From positions 1 through 64,000 of the forward strand of contig CAVUXE010000037.1 of the NCBI GenBank assembly GCA_963745235.1: DNA of 64,000 nt, in the 5' to 3' direction. Position numbers and translations under genes: made by a program. The notes below the pieces were generated by a model. That model did not search any database, was not told the DNA's origin, and saw only the letters and a list, made by a program, of their open reading frames with translations. Positions 11,185 to 41,713 of the stretch are shown piece after piece. Positions within the stretch are counted from its first letter, which is position 1; the number at the start of each line of letters is the position of its first letter. Source of the DNA: an uncultured Spirochaetota bacterium (lineage in GTDB: Bacteria > Spirochaetota > Spirochaetia > SZUA-6 > Fen-1364).

Positions 11185-12075
11185 ATGCAGGACTACAAGC
11201 TCGTTCAAACAGAAAAGGATGTTGCCGATCTGGCCGCGCGCCTGAGGGACAACGGCTGCGTCCGTGCTGCCATCGACATCGAGGGAGAGAACAACCTGCA
11301 CGCCTATGGCATCCGCGTGTCCCTCATCCAGGTCTTCGACGGCAGGCAGGCCTTCGTGATCGACGTGCTTTCGCTCCCCTCCCGCCGGGCCCTGGCATCT
11401 CTTTTGCAAGGATCCAGCTGGGTAAAGGTGATGTACGACGCGGCAAACGACATGCTCGCCTTCCAGCATGACCTGGGCATCAGTCCGGCGCCCATAGTCG
11501 ATGTGGCCATTGCGGCCCAGCTGCTGAAAAGGCCGGGCGGGCTTTCCGCCCTTTCTCCGAATGGCCGCTCACGCTCGTCCAAGGACAAGTTCCAGAAGGC
11601 AAACTGGATGAGGCGGCCGCTGCCGAGGGACCTGCTGGAATACGCCGTCTCCGACGTGCTCAGCCTGACCGAGATCGCGGATGAGCTGCTGGCCGAGCTG
11701 GCCCAGAAGAAGCTCATGATGGAGTTTCTCAGGAAGAACTGGGAAAGGCAGAGCATGGTGCGCAGCTGGAACCCGCTGGCAAACTACACGCGCATCCCGG
11801 GCTACAACCGCATGAACGCGGAGGCTAGGCGCCTGGCGCGGGTCCTGTGGTACGCGCGGGAGTATTATGCCAGAGAGCTCGACCTTTCCCCGGAAATGGT
11901 TGCCTCGAAGCAGCTCCTGAAAAGGATCATCGACGAGCGTGTCGGGGACGCTGACGGGATCATACGCATTCTGAATGAAGGGAGAAAACGCGGGCCCATA
12001 CAGGCGGCGGCGTTCACCACGTGCCTCCAGAAGGCCCAGACGGACGCGCCCGTCCAGGACGTCACAGGCAGATGA
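11185..12075 (+). CDS. Ribonuclease D-like 3'-5' exonuclease with HRDC-like region
   Basis: AIDIEG, SLIQV, FQKANWMRRPL, YAVSDV (DEDDy motifs). Confidence 0.85.
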   Translation: MQDYKLVQTEKDVADLAARLRDNGCVRAAIDIEGENNLHAYGIRVSLIQVFDGRQAFVIDVLSLPSRRALASLLQGSSWVKVMYDAANDMLAFQHDLGISPAPIVDVAIAAQLLKRPGGLSALSPNGRSRSSKDKFQKANWMRRPLPRDLLEYAVSDVLSLTEIADELLAELAQKKLMMEFLRKNWERQSMVRSWNPLANYTRIPGYNRMNAEARRLARVLWYAREYYARELDLSPEMVASKQLLKRIIDERVGDADGIIRILNEGRKRGPIQAAAFTTCLQKAQTDAPVQDVTGR

Positions 12076-26478: not shown

Positions 26479-27728
26479 CTATTTCCTGATGTCCCCGTTG
26501 CCGCGCAGGACCCACTTGTAGGTCGTGAGCTCTTTCAGCCCCATGGGTCCGCGCGCGTGAAGCTTGTCCGTGCTGATGCCGATCTCCGCTCCCAGGCCGA
26601 AGATGCCCCCGTCATTCAGGCGGGTGGAGGCGTTCACCGTGACGACCGCTGAATCCACCATGCCCACGAACCGCTCTATTGCCGCGGCGTCCCGGGAGAG
26701 GATCCCGTCGGTGTGACTCGACCCGTACTTCTCGATATGAGCAGCCGCCTCCTCCAGGCCGCCGACAACCTTCACCGTCAGGATCAGGTCCAGGTACTCG
26801 GCGTACCAGTCTTCCTCCCGGGCGGCAGCGATGCCGGGGAGAATGGCGAGGGATTTCGCGTCGCCGCGAAGCTCCACGTTCGGCATTTTCTCACGCACCA
26901 TGGGGAGAAACCTGCCTGCCACCGCCTGGTGCACAAGCAGCTTTTCCAGCGCGTTGCACGTGCCCGGCCGCTGGACCTTGGAGTTCGTCACCACCTCGGC
27001 GGCCATGGCCAGATCAGCCGTTTCATCCACGTAGAGATGGCAGACCCCCTTGTAGTGCTTGATCACCGGGACGGTGGCCTTCTCCGCGACCCGGCGGATG
27101 AGGGACTCCCCGCCGCGCGGAATGGCGAGGTCCACGAGGCCTGACTGCGACACGAGCTCGTCAATTGCCTCGTGCTCGGTCCTCTCGACGTATTGCACGG
27201 CCTCCCCGTCCACGCCAGCGGAAGCAAGGCCCTTGCGGACCAGGCGGACAAGCGCCGCGCTGGATTCCACGGCCTCGCTTCCGCCGCGCAGGATGACCGC
27301 GTTGCCGGATTTCAGGCACAGCGCGGCCGCATCCACGGTCACGTTCGGCCGGGATTCATAGATCATCGCGATGACGCCGATTGGCGTGCGGACCTTTTCC
27401 AGCACAAAGCCGGAAGGCCTGCGGACCCCGATGACCTCCCCCACCGGGTCCTCGAAGGCCGCAATCTCCCTGAGGCTCCCGATCATTTCGTCGATGCGCT
27501 TGTCCGTGAGGGCAAGCCTGTCCAGGAAGGCCGGGGCAGCCCGGCGTCCTTCCCGCGCGCAACGTCCCGCGCGTTGGCGTCCTTGACCTCCCCGCGGCTT
27601 TCGTCGATGGACCTCGCCATGGCAAGAATGGCCCGGTTCTTGGTCTCCGCGCTCAGGCCGCGCAGGGACACCGACGCCCGCTTCGCTGCCCCGGCGCAGC
27701 CGCGAACGTATTCCTTCAAGTCCGCCAT
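26479..27728 (-). CDS. proA: Gamma-glutamyl phosphate reductase, frameshift at ~27535
   Basis: PIGVIAMIYESRPNVT, CNALE, FGLGAEIGIST.KLHARGPMGL. Confidence 0.95.
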
Positions 27729-31930: not shown

Positions 31931-32000
31931 CGGGGCTATACCGTAACGAAATGCCAGCAAGAGTCAAGCACAGACAGGATCTCCCTGGATCAAAAGGTGA

Positions 32001-32030
32001 CGGCAAATCACGGCAAATCTCGGCAAATCC
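32001..32030. repeat. Three tandem 10-bp repeats CGGCAAATC(A/T/C)
   Basis: cggcaaatca cggcaaatct cggcaaatcc read directly. Confidence 0.9.
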
Positions 32031-32037
32031 GTCAAAG

Positions 32038-32066
32038 TTGACAGCCCCTGAGGCAACGGCTATCCT
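32038..32066 (+). promoter_or_regulatory. Sigma70 promoter of tRNA-Leu
   Basis: TTGACA-17bp-TATCCT, 9 bp before the tRNA. Confidence 0.85.
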
Positions 32067-32075
32067 GCCTGCGAA

Positions 32076-32160
32076 GCCGGCGTGATGAAATGGCAGACAT
32101 GCCAGACTCAAAATCTGGTGGGTGGCAACGCCCGTGTCGGTTCAAGTCCGACCGCCGGCA
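32076..32160 (+). tRNA. tRNA-Leu(CAA)
   Basis: GCCGGCG acceptor, CCAGA-CTCAAAA-TCTGG anticodon arm, long variable arm, GGTTCAAGTCC. Confidence 0.95.
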
Positions 32161-32377
32161 GAGAGTTCGTGCAGATGCAAGGAATTGGCGCACCACCCTT
32201 CCATGAACGGGCGGAAGGATGGCCCACTCGCCCCTATCCATACCAGTTTCCCTACCAGTTGAGCGGCCTTGTTCCTTCCAAACTGCGAGCCTCGGAAGGG
32301 ACTATGCTCGTGACGGCGAGAAGGGTTCGGCATTGCGTCCTCCCGTGTAGGAAGCCGCCAATCCGGCTCGATTCAGC

Positions 32378-33118
32378 TCACGCAACCCTCGTGCTGCTTC
32401 GCGGGGCGTCGTGGGACTTCTCGATCCTTCGCGCAACGAGGAGCGTGGCCTCGTAGAGGATCACAAGCGGAAACATGACGGTCAGGGGCGCGACGATGGG
32501 ATCGCTCACGGGCGTGATGATCTCGGCAAAGGCAAAGAGTATGAAGTACGCGACCCGGCGTCTCTTTTTCAGGACAAAGACGCTCAGTACGTGCAGCCGA
32601 ACAAGGATGATGAGAAGGCACGGGAGCTGAAAAGAGATGCCGCAGGAGAGAAGGAAAAACGTCACGAAGGAGATGTAGTCATCGGCGGAGGGCATGTACT
32701 CGATCCTCGGAGGGAAAAGCTGCACGAGGACCTTGATCATGCTCCAGAGGAGGTAGTAGCCGAAACAGGTCCCTGCCGCGAACAGGACCACCGAAGCCAC
32801 GAGCAACGGCATGACGAGACTTCTCTCGGAGCGCCGCAGCCCGGGGGACACGAAACCGATGAGCTGATGCGCCCAGAGCGGGGTGGTGAGGATGATCCCC
32901 CCGTACAAGGCGAGGCGCAGCTTTATCATCAACCCGTCGAGAAGCCTGAAAGCTCTCAGGTGCAGACCGCCCGAGGGAAGAAGCAGGACGGTCAGGGCGG
33001 AATCGGCGAAAAAGTATGCAACAACGGTTCCCGCAAACACGGCGACGGCGGCAACGAGGAGGCGCCGCCGCAATTCCGACAGGTGATCGGAAAAACTCAT
33101 GAAAGCGTTGCCCGTCAT
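32378..33118 (-). CDS. tatC: Twin-arginine translocase subunit TatC
   Basis: MSFSDHLSELRRRL, FVSPGL...E, GISFQLP, AEIITP..DP, ILYE. Confidence 0.93.
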   Translation of the reverse strand: MTGNAFMSFSDHLSELRRRLLVAAVAVFAGTVVAYFFADSALTVLLLPSGGLHLRAFRLLDGLMIKLRLALYGGIILTTPLWAHQLIGFVSPGLRRSERSLVMPLLVASVVLFAAGTCFGYYLLWSMIKVLVQLFPPRIEYMPSADDYISFVTFFLLSCGISFQLPCLLIILVRLHVLSVFVLKKRRRVAYFILFAFAEIITPVSDPIVAPLTVMFPLVILYEATLLVARRIEKSHDAPRSSTRVA

Positions 33119-33136
33119 GCAATCCTCACAGCGGGT

Positions 33137-33469
33137 CTATGAGAGCCTGGCTCCACACTGGCCGCAGAATCGGGACTCCTGCGGGTTCAAAGCGTTGCAC
33201 ACGCCGCATGACCGCCCTGCGGCAGAAACGTTGTGCGGCGCGGGAGCCTGCGCTTGCCGAGACGCGGCGTCATCTTGAGAGCGTCTCTCCTGCACGCCGC
33301 TGCCTCCGTTCTCATCCCTGAACTGCGCACTCATTTCCTGGGCGCCTTTGCGGAACTCCCTGACCGACTTCCCAAGCCAGTGACCAAGTTGGGGAAGTCG
33401 CTTTGGTCCGAATATCACGAGCGCGACGATTCCGATGAAAAGCAGATGAATGGGCTGAAGTCCGAACAT
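33137..33469 (-). CDS. tatA: TatA/E subunit with C-terminal zinc ribbon
   Basis: VALVIFGPKRLPQLG...LGKSVREFRKG; CGVC...SRFCGQCG. Confidence 0.9.
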   Translation of the reverse strand: MFGLQPIHLLFIGIVALVIFGPKRLPQLGHWLGKSVREFRKGAQEMSAQFRDENGGSGVQERRSQDDAASRQAQAPAPHNVSAAGRSCGVCNALNPQESRFCGQCGARLS

Positions 33470-33491
33470 GGTTCCTCCTATTCGTAACGGG

Positions 33492-33797
33492 CTACTCTCG
33501 TATGCGATAGACAGCGCACGAATGGAAATCGATCTCCCACTTGAAGCCAGGAATCCTCTCCCACAGGTATTTTCGGCTCATCGTGTCCCACCACTGCTGG
33601 AAGCGGCCAGTGTTATCGGCCATGTCACGTACCAATCTCTCGTACAGCGCACTCGCCTGCAGGTCGTTCTCGGGAAGACCGACCAGTGACCGGAAGAGCT
33701 CCGCGAGGCCGTTCTTGCGCTCGAAGAGCATGCGGATCTCGTCCCGTTCCACGCCCTCAACCGCGCCCACGCTCACGCGGTCGTTTTCAGTTGCCAT
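33492..33797 (-). CDS. CXXX-repeat peptide modification system accessory protein (TIGR04116-like)
   Basis: ERDEIRMLFERKNGL, LYERLVRDM, FQQWWD.M..KY.W, WEIDF.SC; match recalled from the family, plus gene context. Confidence 0.8.
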   Translation of the reverse strand: MATENDRVSVGAVEGVERDEIRMLFERKNGLAELFRSLVGLPENDLQASALYERLVRDMADNTGRFQQWWDTMSRKYLWERIPGFKWEIDFHSCAVYRIRE

Positions 33798-34890
33798 TGC
33801 GGTCCTCCTTCTTCAACTGCGCGAGGATCTCTTCCTGCACCGCGAGGATCCGCGCCAGCGTCTGCTCAATGCGCCCGTTTGTGCCCCCCTGCTGAGGCGA
33901 CCCGCGATCCTGGCTCCTGCGAGCGCCGATTTTCGACTGCGCCTGCATGAGCGCATCGAACGGATCGAGGTAGGCGAGCCGGGGGATGGGTTCCGTCCGT
34001 GCAAGGAAAGTCACGTCGCCGAGCAGATCGCGGAGAATGCTGGATGCATTCCTCTCGTGGTGCGAGGCGATGCACTGCTGGTGCGATGGCGCGTTGATCT
34101 CGAGGGTCGTGCGCTTGTTCAGGTAAAGACAGCGCTTGCAATGGTACGCATCGCAGGCTGAACAGATGGCGGCGTGGGCGATGTCCAGGAGTTCGGCGTT
34201 CGGCACGCGGAGGCCCTGGCGAAGATTTCCCACGGGCTGGTTCGGCTCATCGTGCAGGAATCCGGGACAGACATACAGGTTTCCTTCAGGCCCGACGGTC
34301 ACGTGGTCGATCCCCGCCTGGCAGTTGCGCATCGAGGTGAGAAAGATCCTGTCGGTCAGGAAGCCGAGCTCGATGTCGCGCCGCCGCCTCAGCGTCTCGG
34401 CCACGCAATGTGCGAGGTCCTGGAGAGACCGCCAATAGAGCTCGAGCGCCGCATCGCCTGGCGTCTCCAGGTCCAGGAGACAAAGGTTTATCCGCCGGCA
34501 CGTTCCAATCAGCGGGAGCAATACCGCCGGCAGCTCGGCGATACGGCCGATGGGGAAGCGCACGATGATATTGGCATCCCGCACACGGGCTGGCAACGCA
34601 GTCTTTTCGAGGTCTTCGGGCCCGACGATCACCGTCGATGCTGGATGCGCATCCGCCGCGGAAAGCGGGACGATGTCGGCATGGCTGACGCTCTGCATGA
34701 CCGGCGCAAAGGACGCAGGAGGTTCCGTCTCTCCGTATTGGAAGTTCACCACCAGCCCCCGCGCCTGGGCGAACGCAACGGCCTCCCGAAGGGTTTCCAA
34801 CGGGATGGGACGCGGCGCGGGTCTTTCAGGCTTCGCGTAGTAGCAGAAGGAAGGCGCAGACTCGTCGATCGGCACGAGGAGGAACTTCAT
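33787..34890 (-). CDS. CXXX-repeat peptide maturase (TIGR04119-like; SPASM domain, no CxxxCxxC)
   Basis: PSFCYY N-terminus; CQAG..HVTVGPEGNLYVCP, ICSACDAYHCKRC, PSHQQC. Confidence 0.8.
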   Translation of the reverse strand: MKFLLVPIDESAPSFCYYAKPERPAPRPIPLETLREAVAFAQARGLVVNFQYGETEPPASFAPVMQSVSHADIVPLSAADAHPASTVIVGPEDLEKTALPARVRDANIIVRFPIGRIAELPAVLLPLIGTCRRINLCLLDLETPGDAALELYWRSLQDLAHCVAETLRRRRDIELGFLTDRIFLTSMRNCQAGIDHVTVGPEGNLYVCPGFLHDEPNQPVGNLRQGLRVPNAELLDIAHAAICSACDAYHCKRCLYLNKRTTLEINAPSHQQCIASHHERNASSILRDLLGDVTFLARTEPIPRLAYLDPFDALMQAQSKIGARRSQDRGSPQQGGTNGRIEQTLARILAVQEEILAQLKKEDRNGN

Positions 34891-36105
34891 GGCGATGCCC
34901 CCTCGGGGGCTGCGGCAGCGGGCAGTTCTTCACCTACCGGCGGAAGCTTGGCGAACATCTTCCAGTAGTAGCGGTTGGCGCGCACCCGCGCCTTGTGCAT
35001 CGCGCAGATGAAGACGGCCCTCTGATAGATCGTCTCGGTGTCCGCCGCATCGTAGTTCAAGCCCTGGCACCAGGCACATCCGCTGGCAACCTCGCAGGCG
35101 AGGCATTTCTGCGGGCTCTGGCGCATCCGGTCGAGCGTGAGGAACGGACGAAGCCTGTTCTGATCGATCCCCTCGAAGCAGCTTCCCACGGTCCGCGCCG
35201 GGTGTCGCGCGAGCGAGTAGGGTGCGAACCTGATGCAGGGGTAGAAGAGGCCGGCGTGGTCGACGGCGAGCATCTTCCCTGCCCCGCACCAGTTCTGGGT
35301 GTCCTGCTCCGCATCGAGGGGGAGGCCGATCGAATCCGAGAAGAAGGTCGCGGCCACCGTGTTGAAGAGCCCTTTCGCGAGGACGTGGTCTGCAAGCGAT
35401 TTGAGCTGCTCCTCGAGAACCGCATCATCGCCTTCGACCCAGACGTTCTCGAAAACAGTATTGATGAACACGTTCGGTATCCCAAGGTCCCAGAGGTGCA
35501 CGACGCTCTCGAACACGAACGGCAGGTCCTCGTGACCCACCGTGACCTTCGTGCCTGCGCCCGGAAACTGCTCCAGCCACCGGGGGACGTTGCGCACGAC
35601 GTCGCCATAAGATCCCCTCCCATCGGGATACCGGCGCTGCAGGTCGTGCTTGCGCTGCGTGCCATCCAGGCTTAGCCCGATGCTGAGGTGGGCCCTGTTC
35701 TTTGCGATGAAATCCTGGACGCGCGGGTGGTCGTAGAGGATGCCGTTGGTCGAAAGGCTGAACCGGTAGCTGTCGAACCAGGGGTGGTTCTCCTCGTACA
35801 TACGCCGCTTGATGTAGTCGCACACCGCATCGATCAGCTCGATCTCGAGCAGGGGTTCGCCGCCAATGAAAGCCCATTCGACGCTGGACTCGGGAAAGAA
35901 GCGTTGGTTGGCGAGCACGTAGTCCACCGTGCGCCGCGCGATGTCGAAGCTCATGGGGTGCGCGCGGTTCTTGCCCGGACAGGTAACAGTAGCAGCACCG
36001 CAGCTGGCAGTCCTCCGTTACGATGAAGGAGATATTCTTTGCACTGCCTTCGCCCCAGCTCCGTGGCTTCTGCCCGAAAGTGTAATGGCTACTCGGAATA
36101 GACAT
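34887..36105 (-). CDS. Radical SAM peptide maturase, CXXX-repeat target family (TIGR04115-like), frameshift at ~35975
   Basis: ISFIVTEDCQLRCCYCYL in ORF 35425..36105 joins FIGGEPLLE, STNG, NWCGAG, YPCIRF, CLACEVASGCAWC. Confidence 0.88.
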
Positions 36106-36120
36106 GAGAAGGGGAACCTC

Positions 36121-36336
36121 TCAGTGTGCGCAGACCATGGTGCACGTCGTTGAGCAACTCCCCGTGCAGGACGAGCTGCAGCCACCGGTGCAGGTCCCCT
36201 CGCAGTTGTCCTTGCAGGCGCTGGTGCACGTCCCGCCGCATCCTCCTGGCGGCGAGCAACTCGAGAGGCTGAGACCGAGCAGGGCGAACGAGGTGAGGAC
36301 GGTTGCAGCGCTTCTCAAGAAATGACGGCGGTCCAT
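36121..36336 (-). CDS. CXXX-repeat RiPP precursor, 71 aa, with Tat motif and lipobox
   Basis: MDRRHFLRS, hydrophobic core, LSSC27, then Cys at 33, 37, 41, 45, 49, 53, 57, 61, 65 and 69. Confidence 0.85.
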   Translation of the reverse strand: MDRRHFLRSAATVLTSFALLGLSLSSCSPPGGCGGTCTSACKDNCEGTCTGGCSSSCTGSCSTTCTMVCAH

Positions 36337-37458
36337 TTGATCGCTCAGGGCGGGAAGGCCGCCGTCTCCGGTCGTGACGAGCTCGTCATCGACGACGCCT
36401 CTCGCCGCTGGGCTGAGCCTCGACGGGGAATGGCGTCTCTCGGCCGCATCCTGATACTCGTGCCAGGCGCAGCAGTAGGGATCAGGGGCGTTGATGTTGC
36501 CTGTAAAATAGAGGGCGCGCGCCCGGCACCCTCCGCCCGACACCGCGAGGTGCGGGCAGTCGGCACAGCGGGTGTTCAGGGCGAAGACCTTCTTCCTTGC
36601 CAGGTGCTGCGCCCAGAGACTTGCAAGCGGTTGTGCGCGAATGCTGCCTTCAAGGAAATCGTCTCCCAGGAAAGCGCACGGGCTCATGCGGCCGTCGGCC
36701 CTGATGCCGAGCTTGGTATCGGGACAACCGAACCGCTGCGTTTCATTTCCCGCGCCGCATTGGAGCGAAAGGTCGGGAGATCGGCCTATGGCGGCGATCA
36801 TCTGCCAGGCTTCGCCCGCCATCGATGGCGGGATGAGAAGTGAGGAGTTCTCGAGCGCCCTGCCCGCGGGCTTGACGAGCCCGACGACGAGATTGCGTAC
36901 TCCAATGCTTTTCAGGAACTCGGGCAGGCGCGAGATCTCCTGCATGTTCTCGCGGTGAACGGAATACTGAACGACGAGGTCTCGGATATCCGCCGACTGC
37001 AGAAGCCTGATTCCTCGCAGGGCCGCAGCGAAGGCGCCCTGGCTTCGAAGGGAATCATGGGTCTCCGGGGTCACACCATCAAGGCTGACTTTCACCCGCA
37101 CCTGCTCCTGCGCCAGGCAAGCAGCTGTCTCGGCCGTGACGAGGGATCCCGTGGTCAGGAGCGTTACCGCGAGGCTTTTCGCTCGCGCGCGGGAGACGAA
37201 ATGCCGCAACCCGCTTCGCATCATCGGCTCGCCGCCTGAGAAGGTCACAGCTGGCACGCCCATGTCGCTCACCTGATCAATGAGCGAGAGCACTTCCCCG
37301 TCGGAGAGCTCCTGTTCCATGGGCTTCCCCGCGGAGCAATAGCAGTGCCTGCATTGATTGGAACACCTGTTCGTCAGGTCGATGTAGACGCGTGATGGAA
37401 GAAGCGGTGAGAAGGTCTTTCTTTCAGAGCCCATTCCGACATAGAGACTTCTTGCCAT
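36121..37458 (-). CDS. Radical SAM/SPASM enzyme whose frame continues into the Cys-rich peptide
   Basis: TNRCSNQCRHCYC, FSGGEP, VSLDG, CADC....GGGCRARA, PDPYC, then a linker and MDRRHFL... Confidence 0.88.
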   Translation of the reverse strand: MARSLYVGMGSERKTFSPLLPSRVYIDLTNRCSNQCRHCYCSAGKPMEQELSDGEVLSLIDQVSDMGVPAVTFSGGEPMMRSGLRHFVSRARAKSLAVTLLTTGSLVTAETAACLAQEQVRVKVSLDGVTPETHDSLRSQGAFAAALRGIRLLQSADIRDLVVQYSVHRENMQEISRLPEFLKSIGVRNLVVGLVKPAGRALENSSLLIPPSMAGEAWQMIAAIGRSPDLSLQCGAGNETQRFGCPDTKLGIRADGRMSPCAFLGDDFLEGSIRAQPLASLWAQHLARKKVFALNTRCADCPHLAVSGGGCRARALYFTGNINAPDPYCCAWHEYQDAAERRHSPSRLSPAARGVVDDELVTTGDGGLPALSDQMDRRHFLRSAATVLTSFALLGLSLSSCSPPGGCGGTCTSACKDNCEGTCTGGCSSSCTGSCSTTCTMVCAH

Positions 37459-37522
37459 TGGAACCCCCCTCGCACACTTTTTTTGGTCTTCAGATCCTGG
37501 CGCGGCTGAGAAAGGTTTTCAC

Positions 37523-37551
37523 ATGATAGCTCTACAGGCCGATGGATGCAA
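37523..37551 (-). promoter_or_regulatory. Putative sigma70 promoter of the island operon
   Basis: TTGCAT-17bp-TATCAT on the minus strand; GAGGGGG RBS before ATG 37458. Confidence 0.6.
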
Positions 37552-37728
37552 GAAGAATATCTCAAGAGCTCAAAAAACTGCAAAATGAAACTCGGTATAC
37601 AAAGCCGCCATACCAGAATCCATACCTATTGGATGAGCCACCGTAGCTGGGGTAGCGGAAATAGCTTCGAGAGCCTTGAAATAGCTCGAAAACGGGCCTC
37701 ATAGCGCGTGTAGGAAGGATGGACGCGC

Positions 37729-37784
37729 CTCAAAATCTGGTGGGTGGCAACGCCCGTGTCGGTTCAAGTCCGACCGCCGGCAGA
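37729..37784 (+). repeat. attR: duplicated 3' half of tRNA-Leu
   Basis: Identical to 32107-32162. Confidence 0.95.
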
Positions 37785-37829
37785 CAATTCCATCCTTGAT
37801 CGGTTTTGCACTCTGGGCGCGATTGCGGG

Positions 37830-38140
37830 GCACGCTGCTGCGAGCCCACGAATGCACCGTATCCGCTGCCTGCCGCGCCTCCTTGGCGTCTGATAGGGTC
37901 AACTCCAGTTCGTTATCGGGGCAGCGGACTTCAACGGCGTACGGATTCAAGATCTGGTCGGCCGCTCGCACGGCAGAAGGGACTCCTTCCGCCCGGTCCG
38001 CGCTGACTTCTTCCATGAGCGCCAGGTTGGCCGCTCTTTCCATTCCCGGCGTGGCTGCGCAAGGCCGAAAACGACCTTCTTTCTCAGCCGGCATGAACTT
38101 CTTTGCCCTGAGAAATGACCGCCATCTCTGCCAGCAACCG
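37830..38140. pseudogene. HEPN-domain remnant
   Basis: Minus strand LNPYAVEVRCPD...DAKEARQAA; plus strand WLRKAENDLL...CQQ. Confidence 0.5.
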
Positions 38141-38179
38141 CACGCCGACGCGCCGGTAGGCGCGAAGCGTGCCCTGGAC

Positions 38180-38850
38180 CGATGATAGTAGCGCACGAGG
38201 CTCGAAAGGCTCTGGCGGAACGCTATTGGCTTTCCCCCCTCCGCCTCTGCGTTGATCTGCGGAATGGTCTCAGCACCCTCCAGCAGTGGCCAATAGTGTT
38301 GCCGCCACTTCTCGCTGACTTCCAGGAGCGGGACACTGACCGACCCGATGGGCTCCCAGCGAGCGGAGGCCCACGAAGTCATGGCGATATCGCAAAGCGC
38401 GCGGATCAAGGCCAGCTTGTACGTAGCCACCTTCCGATCAGCGTTGATGATGCTTTCCACCCGATCGATGGCGCGCGTGCTCACTCCGGAGGACTGGAAG
38501 TACAGTGTTGCCCAGAGAAAGCCCCTCCCAGCGGAGTCAGCGGATTTCCATTCATTCTCAAGCTCAAACCCAAGCCGTTCGAAAAGGAGCCGAACCTGGG
38601 CAACGGACCGGATGATCATGAGCCTGCCCGCCTCATCACGCTGACCGCCGGGCCTGATGTCACCCCGCTCGACTGGCATAGAGATCAGGAGCTTCCCGCC
38701 CTTCTTGAGGCGCTGGCGAAGCTCGAACGCGACGTCGAAGAGCTCTCCGTCCGGGATGTGCATGATAACGCAGAGAGGAGAACACCGTCATACTCGTGTC
38801 GGATATCCGAGGGCAGGCCTCCAGGCAGGAAGCCATCAGAGAGCTTGCCC
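38180..38850 (-). pseudogene. Internal fragment of a class I methyltransferase/HNH-type fusion gene
   Basis: YDGVLLSA..MHIP, LKKGGKLLIS, DRK.ATYKLALIRAL, HYWPL; both ends missing. Confidence 0.6.
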
Positions 38851-39774
38851 AGATGGAACTTCATACTTACCGGCAGCTCCGCGCGTCAACTCAGGCGAGG
38901 CAGCGCCAATCTCCTTCCTGGCCGAAGCATCGCACATACCCTGACTCCCGTCATGCAGGCAGAGTGCAGGCCGAGTACTCTGCTGCCGGCCGCCCTGCCG
39001 GCTGAGCCGAGATTTCCCCAGAGGAGCCTGGAAGACTACTTGCTGTTCGGAAGCCTCCCTGGGCTGTATTCAGAAGGACGGGACGCCTGGGCTGAGACGC
39101 TGGCAACGTGGGCCGATCTTTACATCGAGAATGAGGTCCGGCAGGAAAACATCGTCAGGGACATGGGAGCTTTCAGCCGGTTTATCGAGCTTGCGGCGCT
39201 TGAGTCCGGCCGTATCGTCAACTACACCAAGATGGCCTCCGCCGTGGGCGTGGCCGTGAACACGCTCCGCAATTTCTTCCAAGTCCTTGAGGACACCTTC
39301 CTCGGAATACGGGTACCGCCATTCACCGAAACACGCCGCCGTGTCGCCCTGGCACCCCGGTTCGTTCTCTTCGACATAGGAGTTCGCCATGCTCTTGCCG
39401 GTCTTCGCATCTCAGAGGACCTCATTCGCATTGGGGCGGAGGAGCTCTTCGAACAATGGGTCATCTCCGAGCTCTGCCACCGCGCCACTGCCCTGGGGCC
39501 TGGATACTCCGTCAGCTCCTGGCGCACCTCTGGCGGGGCAGAGGTGGACGCCATCCTGCGAACTCCCGAGGAGGTGATTCCCGTGGAGATCAAATGGACC
39601 GACAGCCCGCGGCCATCGGACGCGCGGCACGTGGAGACCTTTCTCGATCTCCACTCGGGGGCGAATCGAGGCTTTGTGGTGTGCCGCACTCCCTCACGCC
39701 AGGCGCTTACCGACCGGGTCACTGCGCTGCCGTGGAATGAGTTCTATAGCTACAGCTTGTCGGGTAATTGCTAG
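38850..39774 (+). pseudogene. 5'-truncated AAA_14/DUF4143 ATPase
   Basis: FILTGSS..L.GR, FGSLP, LFDIG, EVDAI, PVEIK; no Walker A; 3' end runs into the IS. Confidence 0.75.
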
Positions 39775-40158
39775 CCTGCTGCACCCTGCTGGGCATGGCG
39801 ACGCCTGACCGGCACCTTGCGCGTTGGTGGCGGCAACTCTTGCAGCTGACGCTCGGTTGCCTCCAGCGAAATGCGCTCCATTTCGGCGACGATGCGATCA
39901 AGTTCCTTGCCGGCAGCGATCCACCCTTCTAGCAACTTGGCTTGTTGAGCTGACAGATTAACCGTGACGGTCCTGCCGTCGAGTTTGCGGGTCCACTGGT
40001 AATACGGACCGTGCAAACGGGGGGGTGAGGCTTTGCAGGCGCAGACGGACTTGCCGCAGGTCATCATGCGCTTGAGCAGGGTGCCGCGGCGGAAGAAGCC
40101 GATGTGGCTCAGGGCGAGTTGAAGCTGCCCGGTAGTCTGATGGAAGGTCGGTTTTCAT
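39771..40158 (-). CDS. DUF6788-like IS-associated protein, frameshift at ~40129
   Basis: RRGTL...TCGK..CAC.....HGPYYQWTRKLDGRTVT. Confidence 0.7.
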
Positions 40159-40169
40159 GGCGATGTATA

Positions 40170-40205
40170 TTGACAGAGATTAGTCCCCAGTTATACTACT
40201 GGGGA
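40170..40205 (+). promoter_or_regulatory. Transposase promoter with an inverted repeat around the -10 box
   Basis: TTGACA-16bp-TATACT; TCCCCAGT-tatact-ACTGGGGA. Confidence 0.7.
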
Positions 40206-40342
40206 AGTGTCTCCCGTCAATATCCTCCCGGTTCGACTTTGCCTCCCGATCCTCTCTTCGGCCCTGTGTCTGCTCCTTGTGCTCGGCGGCTTCAGTACAC
40301 GCCCTTGCGTTATCCCAACCACTTCAGCGGAGGTTCCCCCCT

Positions 40343-41713
40343 ATGCCGCGTCAGCCCGATCTATTGCCCAGATCCAAGAGTCCAACCATCCCTGTGGCCG
40401 ACAACCATCGCCTCGTCCAGATCGCCGACACCCTCGATTGGGAGGAGCTGCAACAGCGCGCCCAACAGATCCGTCTGGCAAAGTTGAAGAACGCTGCAGG
40501 CCAGCCGCCGCATTTGCGCGCCACCCTCGGCGCTATGCTGTTCATGGCTACACGCAAGCTCACCTATCGGGAGGCGGAAGACCTCATCCAATACTACGCC
40601 CCGGCGCGTTACCTGTGCGGGCTGACCGAGACGAGCTGGACGCCGGACTTCACCACGATCCAAGACTTCACCGAATTGATGGGAGAGCAGGGGATCAATC
40701 TCATCAATCAGTACGTGGTGCACCTGGCGGTGAAGCAAAAGCTGGCAGATCCCAGGACCCTGGTGGCCGACACCACAGCGCAGGAAGCGGCAATCCCCTA
40801 TCCCAACGAGATGGGACTTATGTCCGCCTTCCTGCGCTCGGCGGCTGCCGCAGGGCGGAAGGTTGGCCGAGGGCTGAAGGGGTTTTTGCAACAGACGGCG
40901 AGTCAATTCCAGGCGGCCGGGCAGAAAGCTCGAGAGTACCGCCTGTTTGCCAAGACCAAGGAGAGCAAGGATCGGGTGATGACTCAGATGCTCACCATCG
41001 TCGAGAAGCTCAACGCGCATTTGGGCAAGGCGCTGGGCGAAGCTGCCGCACAGAGAACAAAGCTACGCAAGTACGCCATCGTGGCCAAGAGCAAGCTGGT
41101 GCAATTGCACGAAACGATGAGCAAATTGCTGCCGCAGATCCGCTACTGGATTCGCTCAGGCTATGTGGCCAGCGGCAAGATCATCAGCCTGCATATCCCG
41201 CAACTCTACAGTATCGTGCGCGGCAAAGTAGGCAAATCGGTGGAGTTCGGACTGAGCTGGGGCATTACGCGTCTGGCCGGTGGGTACCTGCTGGCCACGC
41301 TGGCCAAGGATCGCCGCGAGTTGGTGGACACGAAGTTTGCAGTGCGAGCAGTCAAGGACCACCTCGCGCTCTTTGGCAAAGCGCCGCTGGCATATGCCTA
41401 CGATCGTGGTGGATACAGCGCGCAGAACCTCTCCGCCTTGAAGAAGTTGGGGGTCAAGGAGGTGGGACTGGCCCCCCGTGGACGTACACAGTGGTCGGTA
41501 AGCAGACCGGTGCGCGACCGGCTGGTCAGAGAGCGGGCTTTGGTAGAGGCGGGAATCGGCTCCATCAAAAGTCCGCGCTATGGGTTCAACCGCCCGGCAG
41601 CCCGCTCGGTGACTATGATGGGCGCCTGCGGTCAGCGTGCAGTGCTGGGGTTCAACGCCAACAAACTGGTCCGAGAGCTTGCGCGCCGCAAGACAATGGT
41701 GCTGAGCGGTTGA
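40343..41713 (+). CDS. DDE transposase, IS5-like
   Basis: LDWEEL, PDFTTI, VADTT, IVRGKVGKSVEFG, YDRGG, RALVEAGIG. Confidence 0.88.
   Translation: MPRQPDLLPRSKSPTIPVADNHRLVQIADTLDWEELQQRAQQIRLAKLKNAAGQPPHLRATLGAMLFMATRKLTYREAEDLIQYYAPARYLCGLTETSWTPDFTTIQDFTELMGEQGINLINQYVVHLAVKQKLADPRTLVADTTAQEAAIPYPNEMGLMSAFLRSAAAAGRKVGRGLKGFLQQTASQFQAAGQKAREYRLFAKTKESKDRVMTQMLTIVEKLNAHLGKALGEAAAQRTKLRKYAIVAKSKLVQLHETMSKLLPQIRYWIRSGYVASGKIISLHIPQLYSIVRGKVGKSVEFGLSWGITRLAGGYLLATLAKDRRELVDTKFAVRAVKDHLALFGKAPLAYAYDRGGYSAQNLSALKKLGVKEVGLAPRGRTQWSVSRPVRDRLVRERALVEAGIGSIKSPRYGFNRPAARSVTMMGACGQRAVLGFNANKLVRELARRKTMVLSG

Follow-up and report, generated by a model that had tools for sequence, protein, structure and literature searches.

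The question raised by this locus is whether a radical SAM (rSAM)/SPASM-type enzyme and a putative CXXX-repeat precursor peptide, which share one reading frame in the 64,000-nucleotide stretch of DNA analysed here (the window), are made and used as a single polypeptide. The preferred answer, to which we give a probability of about 60% with its mechanism included, is that the locus holds a retained fusion within a CXXX cluster, in which one 445-aa polypeptide would combine an accessory rSAM/SPASM-type enzyme (folded over aa 1-345), a flexible linker, a Tat/lipobox signal and a Cys-X3 core. The features of the fused frame are as follows, where P0001 and P0002 are metagenome proteins, and X1, X2 and X3 are Logan short-read contigs from other studies, X1 and X2 being from different studies.

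36121..37458, minus strand: fused ORF from an ATG start, 445 codons without a stop and then the stop TGA 36121-36123 (ORF list and sequence)
36469..37458, minus strand: radical SAM core and SPASM-type C-terminal domain, aa 1-330 (PF04055, SPASM-family alignments, AF2 model)
36337..36468, minus strand: linker of 44 aa, aa 331-374 (gapless in the window, P0001 and P0002; no indel in X1/X2)
36345..36389, minus strand: mini-ORF MTSSSRPETAAFPP in an alternative frame, ATG at 36389 and stop TGA 36345-36347 (sequence, ORF list)
36259..36336, minus strand: internal ATG and twin-arginine signal MDRRHFLRSAATVLTSFALLGLSLSS, aa 375-400, with lipobox L-S-S-C (sequence; Cys401 at 36256-36258)
36124..36258, minus strand: core, aa 401-445, C-SPPGG-C and then ten Cys-X3 units, ending ...CTMVCAH (sequence; TIGR04117)

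Integrity of the fused frame

The first-pass annotation had described the frame as open from the SPASM end to the peptide, and it reads so: PDPYCC (aa 325-330) is followed by 44 residues (given there as about 45) and then by MDRRHFL...CAH, with no stop. Within the window, an open linker is at chance level: 37% of shuffled versions of the 132-nt linker are open in any one frame, and 1463 of 2904 stretches of 44 codons, counted over all six frames, were without a stop. The open frame was nevertheless deduced to be more than chance because P0001 and P0002 share both the fusion and the linker length, and because the contigs of other studies agree.

An artefact of sequencing or assembly was considered in this light, in which a base missing from or added to the linker would mask the real stop of the enzyme at TGA 36345-36347. 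Removal of one linker base would indeed bring the frame onto this TGA, as had been pointed out; a single-base error is likely at one position of the contig at least (35977), and open 44-codon stretches are common in this DNA (37-50%). Such an artefact was deemed very improbable, given that X1 and X2, from independent studies, agree without an indel in the linker region and that the same fusion is present in two distant proteins. X1 (record 5) has gaps relative to the window only at 36715 and 36855 and agrees with it over 36223-36714 with zero indels. X2 (record 11) agrees over 36206-36384, also with zero indels; neither contig shows a stop in the linker. The caveat about indels was reasonable, as the window carries an extra base at about 35977, which splits the neighbouring TIGR04115 gene, but the caveat does not extend to the linker. 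The claim that an rSAM/SPASM enzyme and a CXXX-repeat precursor lie in one frame is therefore supported by independent short-read contigs as well as by P0001 and P0002, and two contigs in the protein collection encode the exact 445-aa protein. The fusion of enzyme and precursor is genuine and not an assembly artefact.

The enzyme part

The CX3CX2C motif (C32/C36/C39, at 37342-37365) is invariant in 50 aligned sequences and PF04055 (Radical_SAM) scored 79.9 bits against a cut-off of 29.5; the fused enzyme was assigned to the radical SAM superfamily. Seven conserved auxiliary Cys (C245, C261, C298, C301, C311, C329 and C330) were found in the alignments. Full-length alignments to SPASM families were obtained, for example to TIGR03962 (aa 26-334) and TIGR04303, all of them under the equivalog cut-offs. 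Pfam SPASM (PF13186) gave no match to the window protein at E<=0.01, while some homologues carry a precomputed SPASM label. All of the catalytic Cys are present in the aligned window allele, which retains every conserved enzyme residue. In the AF2 model, 288 residues had a pLDDT >=90, the block means were 87-98 from about aa 21 to 340, falling to 71-79 around aa 231-250, and the folded part closed with a helix at 327-343. The closest solved relative was SkfB (6efn, 3.3e-19), and PqqE (6c8v) was matched at 3e-9.

Assignment as the heme synthase AhbD or as NirJ, suggested by the top NCBIfam matches and by the source name of P0002, was rejected, the scores being far under the cut-offs (TIGR04545, 141.4 bits against 500; TIGR04055, 139.3 against 500; TIGR04051, 136.9 against 515) and mostly confined to the N-terminal half. 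It was deduced that the fused enzyme is an extra, accessory rSAM of another clade than the canonical CXXX maturases.

The signal and the core

By inspection, the twin-arginine motif is D-R-R-H-F-L-R, followed by the hydrophobic stretch SAATVLTSFALLGLSLSS, which may be compared with the consensus S/T-R-R-x-F-L-K given in an excerpt of PMC3383694. With both the RR motif and the hydrophobic stretch, the segment is assigned as a putative Tat signal. A lipobox follows the consensus [LVI][ASTVI][GAS]C and closes a hydrophobic stretch. The window protein has L-S-S-C here, and both P0001 and P0002 have L-S-G-C; these, also read by inspection, conform to the consensus, pointing to a putative lipoprotein signal.

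The core holds ten consecutive C-x3 units (aa 407-443), and no other (C-x3)>=3 run occurs in any of the six frames of the 64-kb window. TIGR04117 (Syntroph_Cxxx target protein) scored 46.0-50.1 bits on the tail against a cut-off of 50 (49.7 or 50.1 when scored with its neighbours, 49.3 and 46.0 in other runs), profile positions 20-95 aligning from the signal onward. The tails of P0001 and P0002 scored 36.7 and 26.5 bits. When the peptide was compared with longer proteins, four weak matches were obtained (E 0.12-7.7); all four were other CXXX-repeat proteins, and none was an rSAM fusion.

The surrounding cluster

Directly downstream of the fused ORF lie five further features.

34887..36105, minus strand: canonical CXXX-repeat-target rSAM maturase TIGR04115, split into two ORFs (profile search)
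33787..34890, minus strand: CXXX repeat peptide maturase TIGR04119 (195.3 bits, cut-off 150)
33492..33797, minus strand: CXXX repeat peptide modification system protein TIGR04116 (78.8 bits, cut-off 50)
33137..33469, minus strand: TatA-family protein with a C-terminal zinc-ribbon (TIGR01411, 55.7 bits, cut-off 53.9; PF02416, 51.6 bits)
32378..33118, minus strand: TatC (TIGR00945, 153.5 bits, cut-off 132.7; PF00902, 173.6 bits)

With TIGR04115, the adjacent TIGR04119 and TIGR04116, and a Cys-X3 target all found, the cluster was assigned as a CXXX repeat peptide modification system. TIGR04115 scored 518.5 bits against a cut-off of 350 on the C-terminal ORF, and its profile positions 1-30 fell on the N-terminal ORF. 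An additional base in a short homopolymer run (at about 35977) causes the split; this base is missing from the X2 and X3 contigs, and the split may therefore be an assembly error. The zinc-ribbon of the TatA-family protein matched PF13240 at aa 88-109 with 23.9 bits, just short of the cut-off of 25. Transposase-like and DUF4143 genes adjoin the cluster.

The same maturase-Tat set was found in G192 with a stand-alone precursor. Selenocysteine at the three in-frame TGA codons of that precursor was considered and found unsupported, the best SelB match scoring 166.8 bits against a cut-off of 242.

Fused relatives and the linker

That all homologues might prove to be two separate genes was answered by P0001 (447 aa) and P0002 (463 aa), which are 54-55% identical to the window protein and keep the same in-frame fusion. 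In each of the three proteins the linker measures exactly 44 aa and aligns without gaps, while its identity is 18-23% between the window and either relative and 50% between P0001 and P0002. The corresponding values are 57% and 86% for the enzyme part, and 73% and 96% for the signal segment, which is the best-conserved part. The constant length despite low identity fits a translated flexible linker rather than a spacer. The start of the linker prolongs the C-terminal helix of the enzyme, the remainder is predicted to be disordered, and a conserved motif, (L/F)P(A/S/P)LS(D/K)Q, closes it. In the AF2 monomer model, aa 356-379 had a pLDDT <50 and the tail was of low confidence (pLDDT <50) and undocked from the enzyme, which counts against the preferred reading.

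Such fusions are rare. A CXXX tail was present in 2 of the 269 retrieved homologues (P0001 and P0002), and among 1.84 billion representatives the only full-length match was the cluster of these two proteins. The fusion is thus known from three sequences, two of which are 86% alike in the enzyme part, a small number that also weighs against the preferred reading. The contigs of P0001 and P0002 were not among the loci of the collection scans (45 metagenome and 26 genome loci). A tail-only search (aa 335-445) of a 5.8-billion-protein database returned 270 candidates, none at E<=0.1, because the tail is too short and too biased for a database of this size. In a scan of relatives, 24 of 61 genomes, including that of the window, were matched at E<=1e-20. 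Apart from the window's own genome, every match was a generic rSAM of 27-38% identity, and no orthologue was found with this query. The cluster was not found in the 60 relatives sampled from the organism's genus, family and order. Judged from these sequences, the enzyme-precursor fusion is conserved, though rare.

Broken alleles

In near-identical DNA from three other studies, the enzyme part is cut short by the following changes: a one-base deletion at 37354 (X3), an 11-base duplication behind 36855 (X1 and X2) and a one-base deletion at 36715 (X1, X2 and X3). Translation of the enzyme then meets its first stop after aa 62 or aa 223, and P0122 and P0275 are recorded gene calls of two such forms. 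The breaks count against the preferred reading. They leave the linker and the peptide intact in these contigs, and TIGR04115 as far as it is covered, suggesting that the enzyme may be dispensable or that the peptide may have its own start.

These alleles bear on the proposal that the cluster is decaying and that the fusion is a recent, non-functional relic, with neither enzyme nor peptide usefully made in this lineage. The breaks in three other studies and in P0122 and P0275 would fit such decay, as would the extra base that splits the window's own TIGR04115, the transposase-like and DUF4143 genes, and the lack of the cluster from the 60 sampled relatives. Decay was judged improbable, since the window allele has lost no conserved enzyme residue, the TIGR04115 split may itself be an assembly error, and P0001 and P0002 are intact at 54-55% identity to the window protein. 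The last of these observations indicates an old, maintained fusion.

One product or two

The alternative of two products from one ORF supposes that the accessory rSAM has lost its stop and that the precursor continues to be translated from the internal ATG (36334-36336, Met375), perhaps aided by termination of the mini-ORF. The rSAM would then act in trans, and the 445-aa form would be tolerated or minor. Met375 and the preceding Gln374 are invariant in 3/3 fused proteins, and the stand-alone G192 precursor has Leu at the Met375 position and starts 10 codons upstream with its own Shine-Dalgarno sequence (SD), which hints at conservation of the ATG as a start codon. The unchanged linker and peptide in strains with a truncated enzyme favour the same view, as does the mini-ORF. 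The latter had been noted previously and is present, with GAGAGG 8 nt upstream of its ATG; its SD is moderate (-5.8 kcal/mol) and it ends 8 nt before the ATG at 36336. Ribosomes on the long frame would, however, cover the mini-ORF start. SD pairing was weaker at the internal ATG than at any other of the eight starts tested, with -2.1 kcal/mol against -6.0 to -11.7 kcal/mol for six other cluster starts. Furthermore, tolerated read-through should not preserve a 44-aa linker, free of indels and stops, at 18-23% identity. Production of two products was considered a serious contender that is nonetheless unlikely. A promoter scan of the minus strand over 32000-38000 found no promoter-like site, and 2 terminator-like sites were counted, below the mean of 5.0 in shuffles.

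The position of the signal is also relevant to this choice. Tat signals are described as 'usually amino-terminal' in an excerpt of PMC13673990. In the long frame the signal begins at residue 375 of 445, an unusual place that speaks against the preferred reading, and it would be N-terminal only for a product begun at ATG 36336.

Proposed mechanism

Under the retained fusion, the tail would be modified while still cytoplasmic by the fused enzyme, acting in cis or between copies, and the canonical maturases TIGR04115, TIGR04119 and TIGR04116 would also modify it. The signal would then enter, in looped form, the TatA/TatC translocase that the cluster itself encodes, while the enzyme remained in the cytoplasm. 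Signal peptidase II would cut before Cys401, and the modified peptide would end up outside, held by a lipid anchor. Each enzyme molecule would serve for a single peptide, as the enzymes of borosin enzyme-core fusions do. A more specific proposal is that this is the first natural rSAM enzyme-precursor fusion, a self-sacrificing enzyme serving as the 'leader' of its own substrate. Its tail would be modified in cis and looped through the dedicated TatA/TatC, signal peptidase II would free a lipid-anchored cross-linked peptide, and the tether would hold back export until modification was done. Taken in all its details, this proposal is tentative and can be called possible rather than probable.

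Comparison with known systems

Haft and Basu are said to have first described such systems in 2011. The window shares TIGR04115, TIGR04119, TIGR04116 and a TIGR04117-like target, in the usual order, with the CXXX repeat peptide modification system (NCBIfam TIGR04114-TIGR04119). In that system the target is a separate small gene, whereas here it is the C terminus of an additional rSAM/SPASM enzyme that matches none of the system's families. The system is defined bioinformatically, and the literature search found no published chemistry for it.

Borosin enzymes are alpha-N-methyltransferases that modify themselves. Their enzyme-core fusions are of the OphMA type (PMC8429565; bioRxiv 10.1101/2021.12.24.474128). 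The modifying enzyme lies at the N terminus and the core at the C terminus of the same polypeptide. The window protein is alike in joining enzyme and core, which in borosins implies self-modification and one-time use. It differs in that its enzyme is a radical SAM/SPASM protein, known here from sequence alone, rather than an alpha-N-methyltransferase, and in having a Tat/lipobox signal between enzyme and core. In plant BURP-domain peptide cyclases, according to an excerpt of PMC12186524, core peptides lie within the cyclase polypeptide; these are plant copper enzymes and lack an export signal separating the core from the enzyme, in contrast to the rSAM and signal of the window. The enzyme part has its best characterised relatives by sequence in SkfB, MftC and PqqE, at scores under the family cut-offs; their substrates are separate small peptides, whereas the candidate substrate here is fused.

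A full-text literature search, which did not reach Haft and Basu 2011, found no natural precursor fusion for radical SAM peptide maturases. A match for 'fused precursor' was rejected as an MBP tag in a cloning method, and a search for ranthipeptide together with twin-arginine found only unrelated genome reports. Enzyme-substrate fusion is known for borosins and plant BURP cyclases; what is new here is the radical SAM enzyme class, for which such a fusion was not found described. The fusion would set enzyme and substrate at 1:1 and name a candidate substrate for an otherwise orphan rSAM clade. The internal Tat/lipobox signal poses the testable question of whether Tat and signal peptidase II can act on a signal behind a folded iron-sulfur domain.

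Unfused relatives and possible chemistry

The unfused clade of the same enzyme (e.g. P0003-P0037; loci L019, L022, L024, L026, L030 and L063) is 41-51% identical to the window protein over aa 1-345 and has the same Cys pattern. Its proteins, of about 335-380 aa, end 6-40 codons past the matched part. No CXXX repeat was found in 27 loci of unfused homologues. The enzymes of the six loci named (41-47% identical) are encoded directly downstream of a small protein in which an invariant Cys precedes the C terminus by two to three residues in all six aligned sequences, the end being ...YxPPxxxCS[IVL] in 4/6. From this invariant Cys, the clade appears to act on a Cys near the C terminus of a protein. 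Our best guess for the chemistry is Cys-directed cross-linking, based on kinship to SkfB, MftC and PqqE and on the Cys motif in the partners of the unfused relatives. The fused protein would be a compact construct for working out the chemistry of CXXX-repeat peptides. The natural broken alleles are ready-made controls. A class I methyltransferase is encoded downstream of the unfused enzymes.

Fusion of a radical SAM enzyme to a CXXX peptide

The first-pass annotation had read a radical SAM/SPASM enzyme and a CXXX peptide in one frame, joined by a linker of about 45 residues. This was borne out by the ORF list, in which a 445-aa ORF runs without a stop between the two parts, the linker being 44 residues long. 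The fused ORF and the genes downstream of it are as follows.

36121..37458, minus strand: fused ORF, ATG start, 445 aa
Downstream, minus strand: TIGR04115 (canonical CXXX maturase), 518.5 bits against a cut-off of 350
Downstream, minus strand: TIGR04119 (canonical CXXX maturase), 195.3 bits against a cut-off of 150
Downstream, minus strand: TIGR04116 (CXXX modification system protein), 78.8 bits against a cut-off of 50
Downstream, minus strand: TatA and TatC, profile matches

On these matches the locus is judged to be a genuine cluster for the modification of CXXX repeat peptides. The radical SAM core of the fused protein is C32-x3-C36-x2-C39, and the Cys-rich C-terminal domain of the enzyme ends in PDPYCC (aa 325-330). 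The signal segment, MDRRHFLRSAATVLTSFALLGLSLSS-C (aa 375-401), was read as lipoprotein-type at its end from the lipobox consensus, and is followed by a core of C-SPPGG-C and ten Cys-X3 units with CAH as the final residues. The last 71 aa matched TIGR04117 (Cys-Xaa-Xaa-Xaa repeat radical SAM target) with 46-50.1 bits, the cut-off being 50. The AF2 model, for which the input was 50 sequences, was confident between approximately aa 21 and 340, its last helix spanning 327-343; the pLDDT fell below 50 in aa 356-379 and over most of the tail, and the signal was drawn as an undocked helix (377-393).

Reproducibility of the fused frame and broken alleles

An open linker is by itself unremarkable, as 37% of 132-nt shuffles were open in a given frame and 1463 of 2904 44-codon windows (six frames) were free of stops. 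It had also been cautioned that this contig has many indels and that removal of one linker base would end the enzyme at TGA 36345-36347, a stop that is indeed present in the sequence. Logan contigs of four sequencing runs from four studies were compared with the window over 35300-37700. Record 5 of run X1 (762 letters, 36223-36974) had gaps at 36715 and 36855 only and agreed with the window from 36223 to 36714, record 11 of run X2 (36206-36384) had zero differences, and the remaining peptide sequence and the stop codon were covered gap-free by X1 record 4 and X2 record 10. Since the X1 and X2 contigs agree with the window there and have no indel or stop in the linker, the linker and peptide sequence is reproduced in independent data, and the fusion is almost certainly real at the DNA level. 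The caution thus fell away for the linker and held elsewhere: one extra base in the window divides TIGR04115 between ORFs 35425-36105 and 34887-35954 (minus strand), and a single frame is restored in the X2 and X3 contigs, where one base is missing at 35977. Among the contigs of the four runs, none agreeing with the window covered 35977, and the extra base could stem from misassembly of a short homopolymer run or be a true mutation of this strain. Further frame breaks in the contig may exist, because a proA-like ORF (26479-27486) matches positions 110-300 only of a 461-position aldehyde dehydrogenase profile.

Near-identical DNA (>99% to the window) from three other studies carried three frame-breaking changes in the enzyme part: −1 at 37354 (X3), an 11-base tandem duplication behind 36855 (X1 and X2), and −1 at 36715 (X1, X2, and X3). 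Applied by script, these placed the first stop behind aa 62 or aa 223. Run X9 agreed with the window over 36535-36865. The window allele was deduced to be the intact one because its frame agrees with every homologue to either side of each change. Two stored proteins, P0122 (177 aa, reading through the duplication) and P0275 (163 aa, with a different end), are gene calls of the broken form, and both begin at Met47. Linker and peptide were unaltered in the broken-allele contigs, as was TIGR04115 as far as it was covered. These alleles show ongoing loss of the enzyme part in some populations; the enzyme could be dispensable with the peptide made alone, or the whole pathway could have been switched off there recently.

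Fused relatives

A homologue search with the 445-aa protein gave 131 matches at E ≤ 1e-3, of which 120 were listed. The two best of those listed were the metagenome proteins P0001 (447 aa, 55% identity, 93% of the query covered) and P0002 (463 aa, 54% identity, 97% covered). Their alignment confirmed the same build, namely enzyme, linker, ...LSKQMDRR(E/D)FLRSSAAVITAFAFLGLSLSGCS, and then CXXX repeats. Their tails matched TIGR04117 more weakly than that of the window.

Pairwise identity of the fused proteins by segment
Enzyme: window vs P0001/P0002, 57%; P0001 vs P0002, 86%
Linker: window vs P0001/P0002, 18-23%; P0001 vs P0002, 50%
Signal: window vs P0001/P0002, 73%; P0001 vs P0002, 96%
Core: window vs P0001/P0002, 62-66%; P0001 vs P0002, 91%

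The repeat number of the core differs among the three proteins. The linker is 44 aa in all of them and gap-free in every pair. An equally diverged mere spacer would be expected to gather indels and stops, and constant length combined with freely varying sequence is as expected of a translated flexible tether.

A profile of the three fused proteins was searched against 1.84 billion representatives. Among the matches listed, P0001 alone matched over the full length (1-447); for the others the highest-scoring part of the match did not reach beyond profile position 374 and in nearly all cases stopped at 324 to 349, with the exception of P0126, a tandem double rSAM. A CXXX tail was found only in P0001 and P0002 among 269 stored proteins, and the exact window protein is on record on two contigs. 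Judged by these searches, the rSAM-CXXX fusion is rare.

One product or two

A second, internal start at ATG 36336 could yield a separate peptide. Met375 and Gln374 do not vary among the three fused proteins, and the residue equivalent to Met375 is Leu in the stand-alone precursor of G192, a genome of the same phylum with a second CXXX cluster. Furthermore, the overlapping mini-ORF noted in the first-pass annotation, MTSSSRPETAAFPP* (ATG 36389, GAGAGG 8 nt before it), is present, has a moderate Shine-Dalgarno pairing (−5.8 kcal/mol), and stops 8 nt before ATG 36336. However, the anti-Shine-Dalgarno pairing in the 20 nt upstream of this ATG was −2.1 kcal/mol, compared with −11.4 at the fused gene's own start and −6.0 to −11.7 at the starts of TIGR04115, TIGR04119, TIGR04116, TatA, and TatC. 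This weak pairing, the lack of any promoter-like site on the minus strand in a promoter scan of the cluster region, and the constant linker length argue for a single product, and translation of the fusion as one functional polypeptide is given a probability of roughly 0.6.

The fused enzyme and its unfused clade

The best NCBIfam matches of the fused enzyme (AhbD, NirJ, StsB, ScmE, MftC, and PqqE) were all far under their cut-offs, and the nearest solved structures were SkfB and PqqE. By sequence it is taken to be an extra enzyme beside the canonical CXXX maturases. Relatives at 41-51% identity, among the matches listed, were unfused and of ~335-380 aa. Of 71 fetched loci, 27 were examined, leaving out L029, L033, and L034, where the contig ends before the C-terminal half, and all at ≤32% identity. 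The enzyme ORF ended 6-40 codons past the matched part in 24 loci and ran off the contig in 3, and no run of at least five Cys at spacing 4 was found in any frame of the 27.

In six loci (L019, L022, L024, L026, L030, and L063) a small protein of 108-169 aa, without an NCBIfam match, was encoded directly upstream of the enzyme. Their alignment shows one Cys shared by all six, two to three residues before the C-terminal end, and four of them have a ...YxPPxxxCS[IVL] ending. A TIGR04222-like membrane protein was the upstream gene in three other loci, and a class I methyltransferase lay downstream in both loci scanned with NCBIfam (L022 and L026). This suggests that the clade acts on a Cys near a protein's C terminus, which would fit the enzyme-substrate reading of the fusion. 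The cassette of small protein, rSAM/SPASM enzyme, and methyltransferase may form a system, so far undescribed, for modifying C-terminal Cys residues.

The related cluster and a proposed route

Among 400 other genomes sampled from the phylum, TIGR04115 exceeded its cut-off in one, G192. Its cluster has the same gene order, including TatA and TatC, together with a TatB-like gene, and its precursor (MKKEVVDKNLDRREFL...) is encoded by a separate gene that has a ribosome-binding site of its own; no rSAM was found upstream of it in the locus examined. Because this cluster has both dedicated Tat genes and a Tat-type signal, these belong to the cluster kind, and the peculiarity of the window cluster is the fusion rather than either of them. 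In the G192 precursor (L104, G192:C23, ~11400-11960, minus strand) three TGA codons lie in frame, and two of these fall within the Cys repeats. No SelB match exceeded its cut-off in this 95%-complete genome, and a pseudogene, recoding, or something else is possible.

In the window, one conserved frame connects the enzyme to a CXXX core by way of a flexible linker and a Tat/lipobox signal, and canonical maturases and a private TatA/TatC lie beside it. Insertion of Tat signals is described by a loop model. The polypeptide would be made whole, and while still in the cytoplasm its tail would be modified by the tethered enzyme as well as by TIGR04115, TIGR04119, and TIGR04116. The signal would then insert as a loop with the enzyme staying inside, and signal peptidase II cleavage before Cys401 would free a lipid-anchored peptide. 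This full scheme of self-modification and Tat release is offered tentatively and is rather unlikely to hold in every step. Tat signals are 'usually amino-terminal' according to the Tat review PMC13673990.

The RiPP-like CXXX system and the principle of enzyme-core fusion are known; the latter has an analogy in borosins, where enzyme and core share one polypeptide. For enzyme-core fusion in the rSAM class with an internal export signal, a precedent was not found in the literature searched. The full-text search, whose scope excluded the founding rSAM target-family description, gave nothing relevant on natural rSAM-precursor fusions or CXXX-repeat chemistry. One 'fused precursor' match was rejected as a natural fusion, as it was an MBP tag.

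Other observations

A hairpin of 7 pairs (36105-36123, minus strand) spans the fused-gene stop and the next gene's GAGAGG and ATG. It might lower the transcription or translation that continues into the maturase genes; terminator-like matches around it were not above shuffles. The cluster TatA-family protein (33137-33469, minus strand; 110 aa) has a C-terminal zinc-ribbon-like CxxC...CxxC motif, with PF13240 matching aa 88-109 at 23.9 bits, just below the cut-off of 25. Upstream of the cluster (37699-41713) lie a DUF4143 ATPase-like ORF, a DUF6788 ORF, and a DUF772 transposase-like ORF. CXXX repeats also occur outside small precursors, since the larger stored proteins P0270-P0273 contain long Cys-X3 regions (precomputed label PF27846): one of 317 aa resembles a Tat lipoprotein, one of 628 aa has a Tat-like signal, and in the other two the N-terminal part is free of the repeat.
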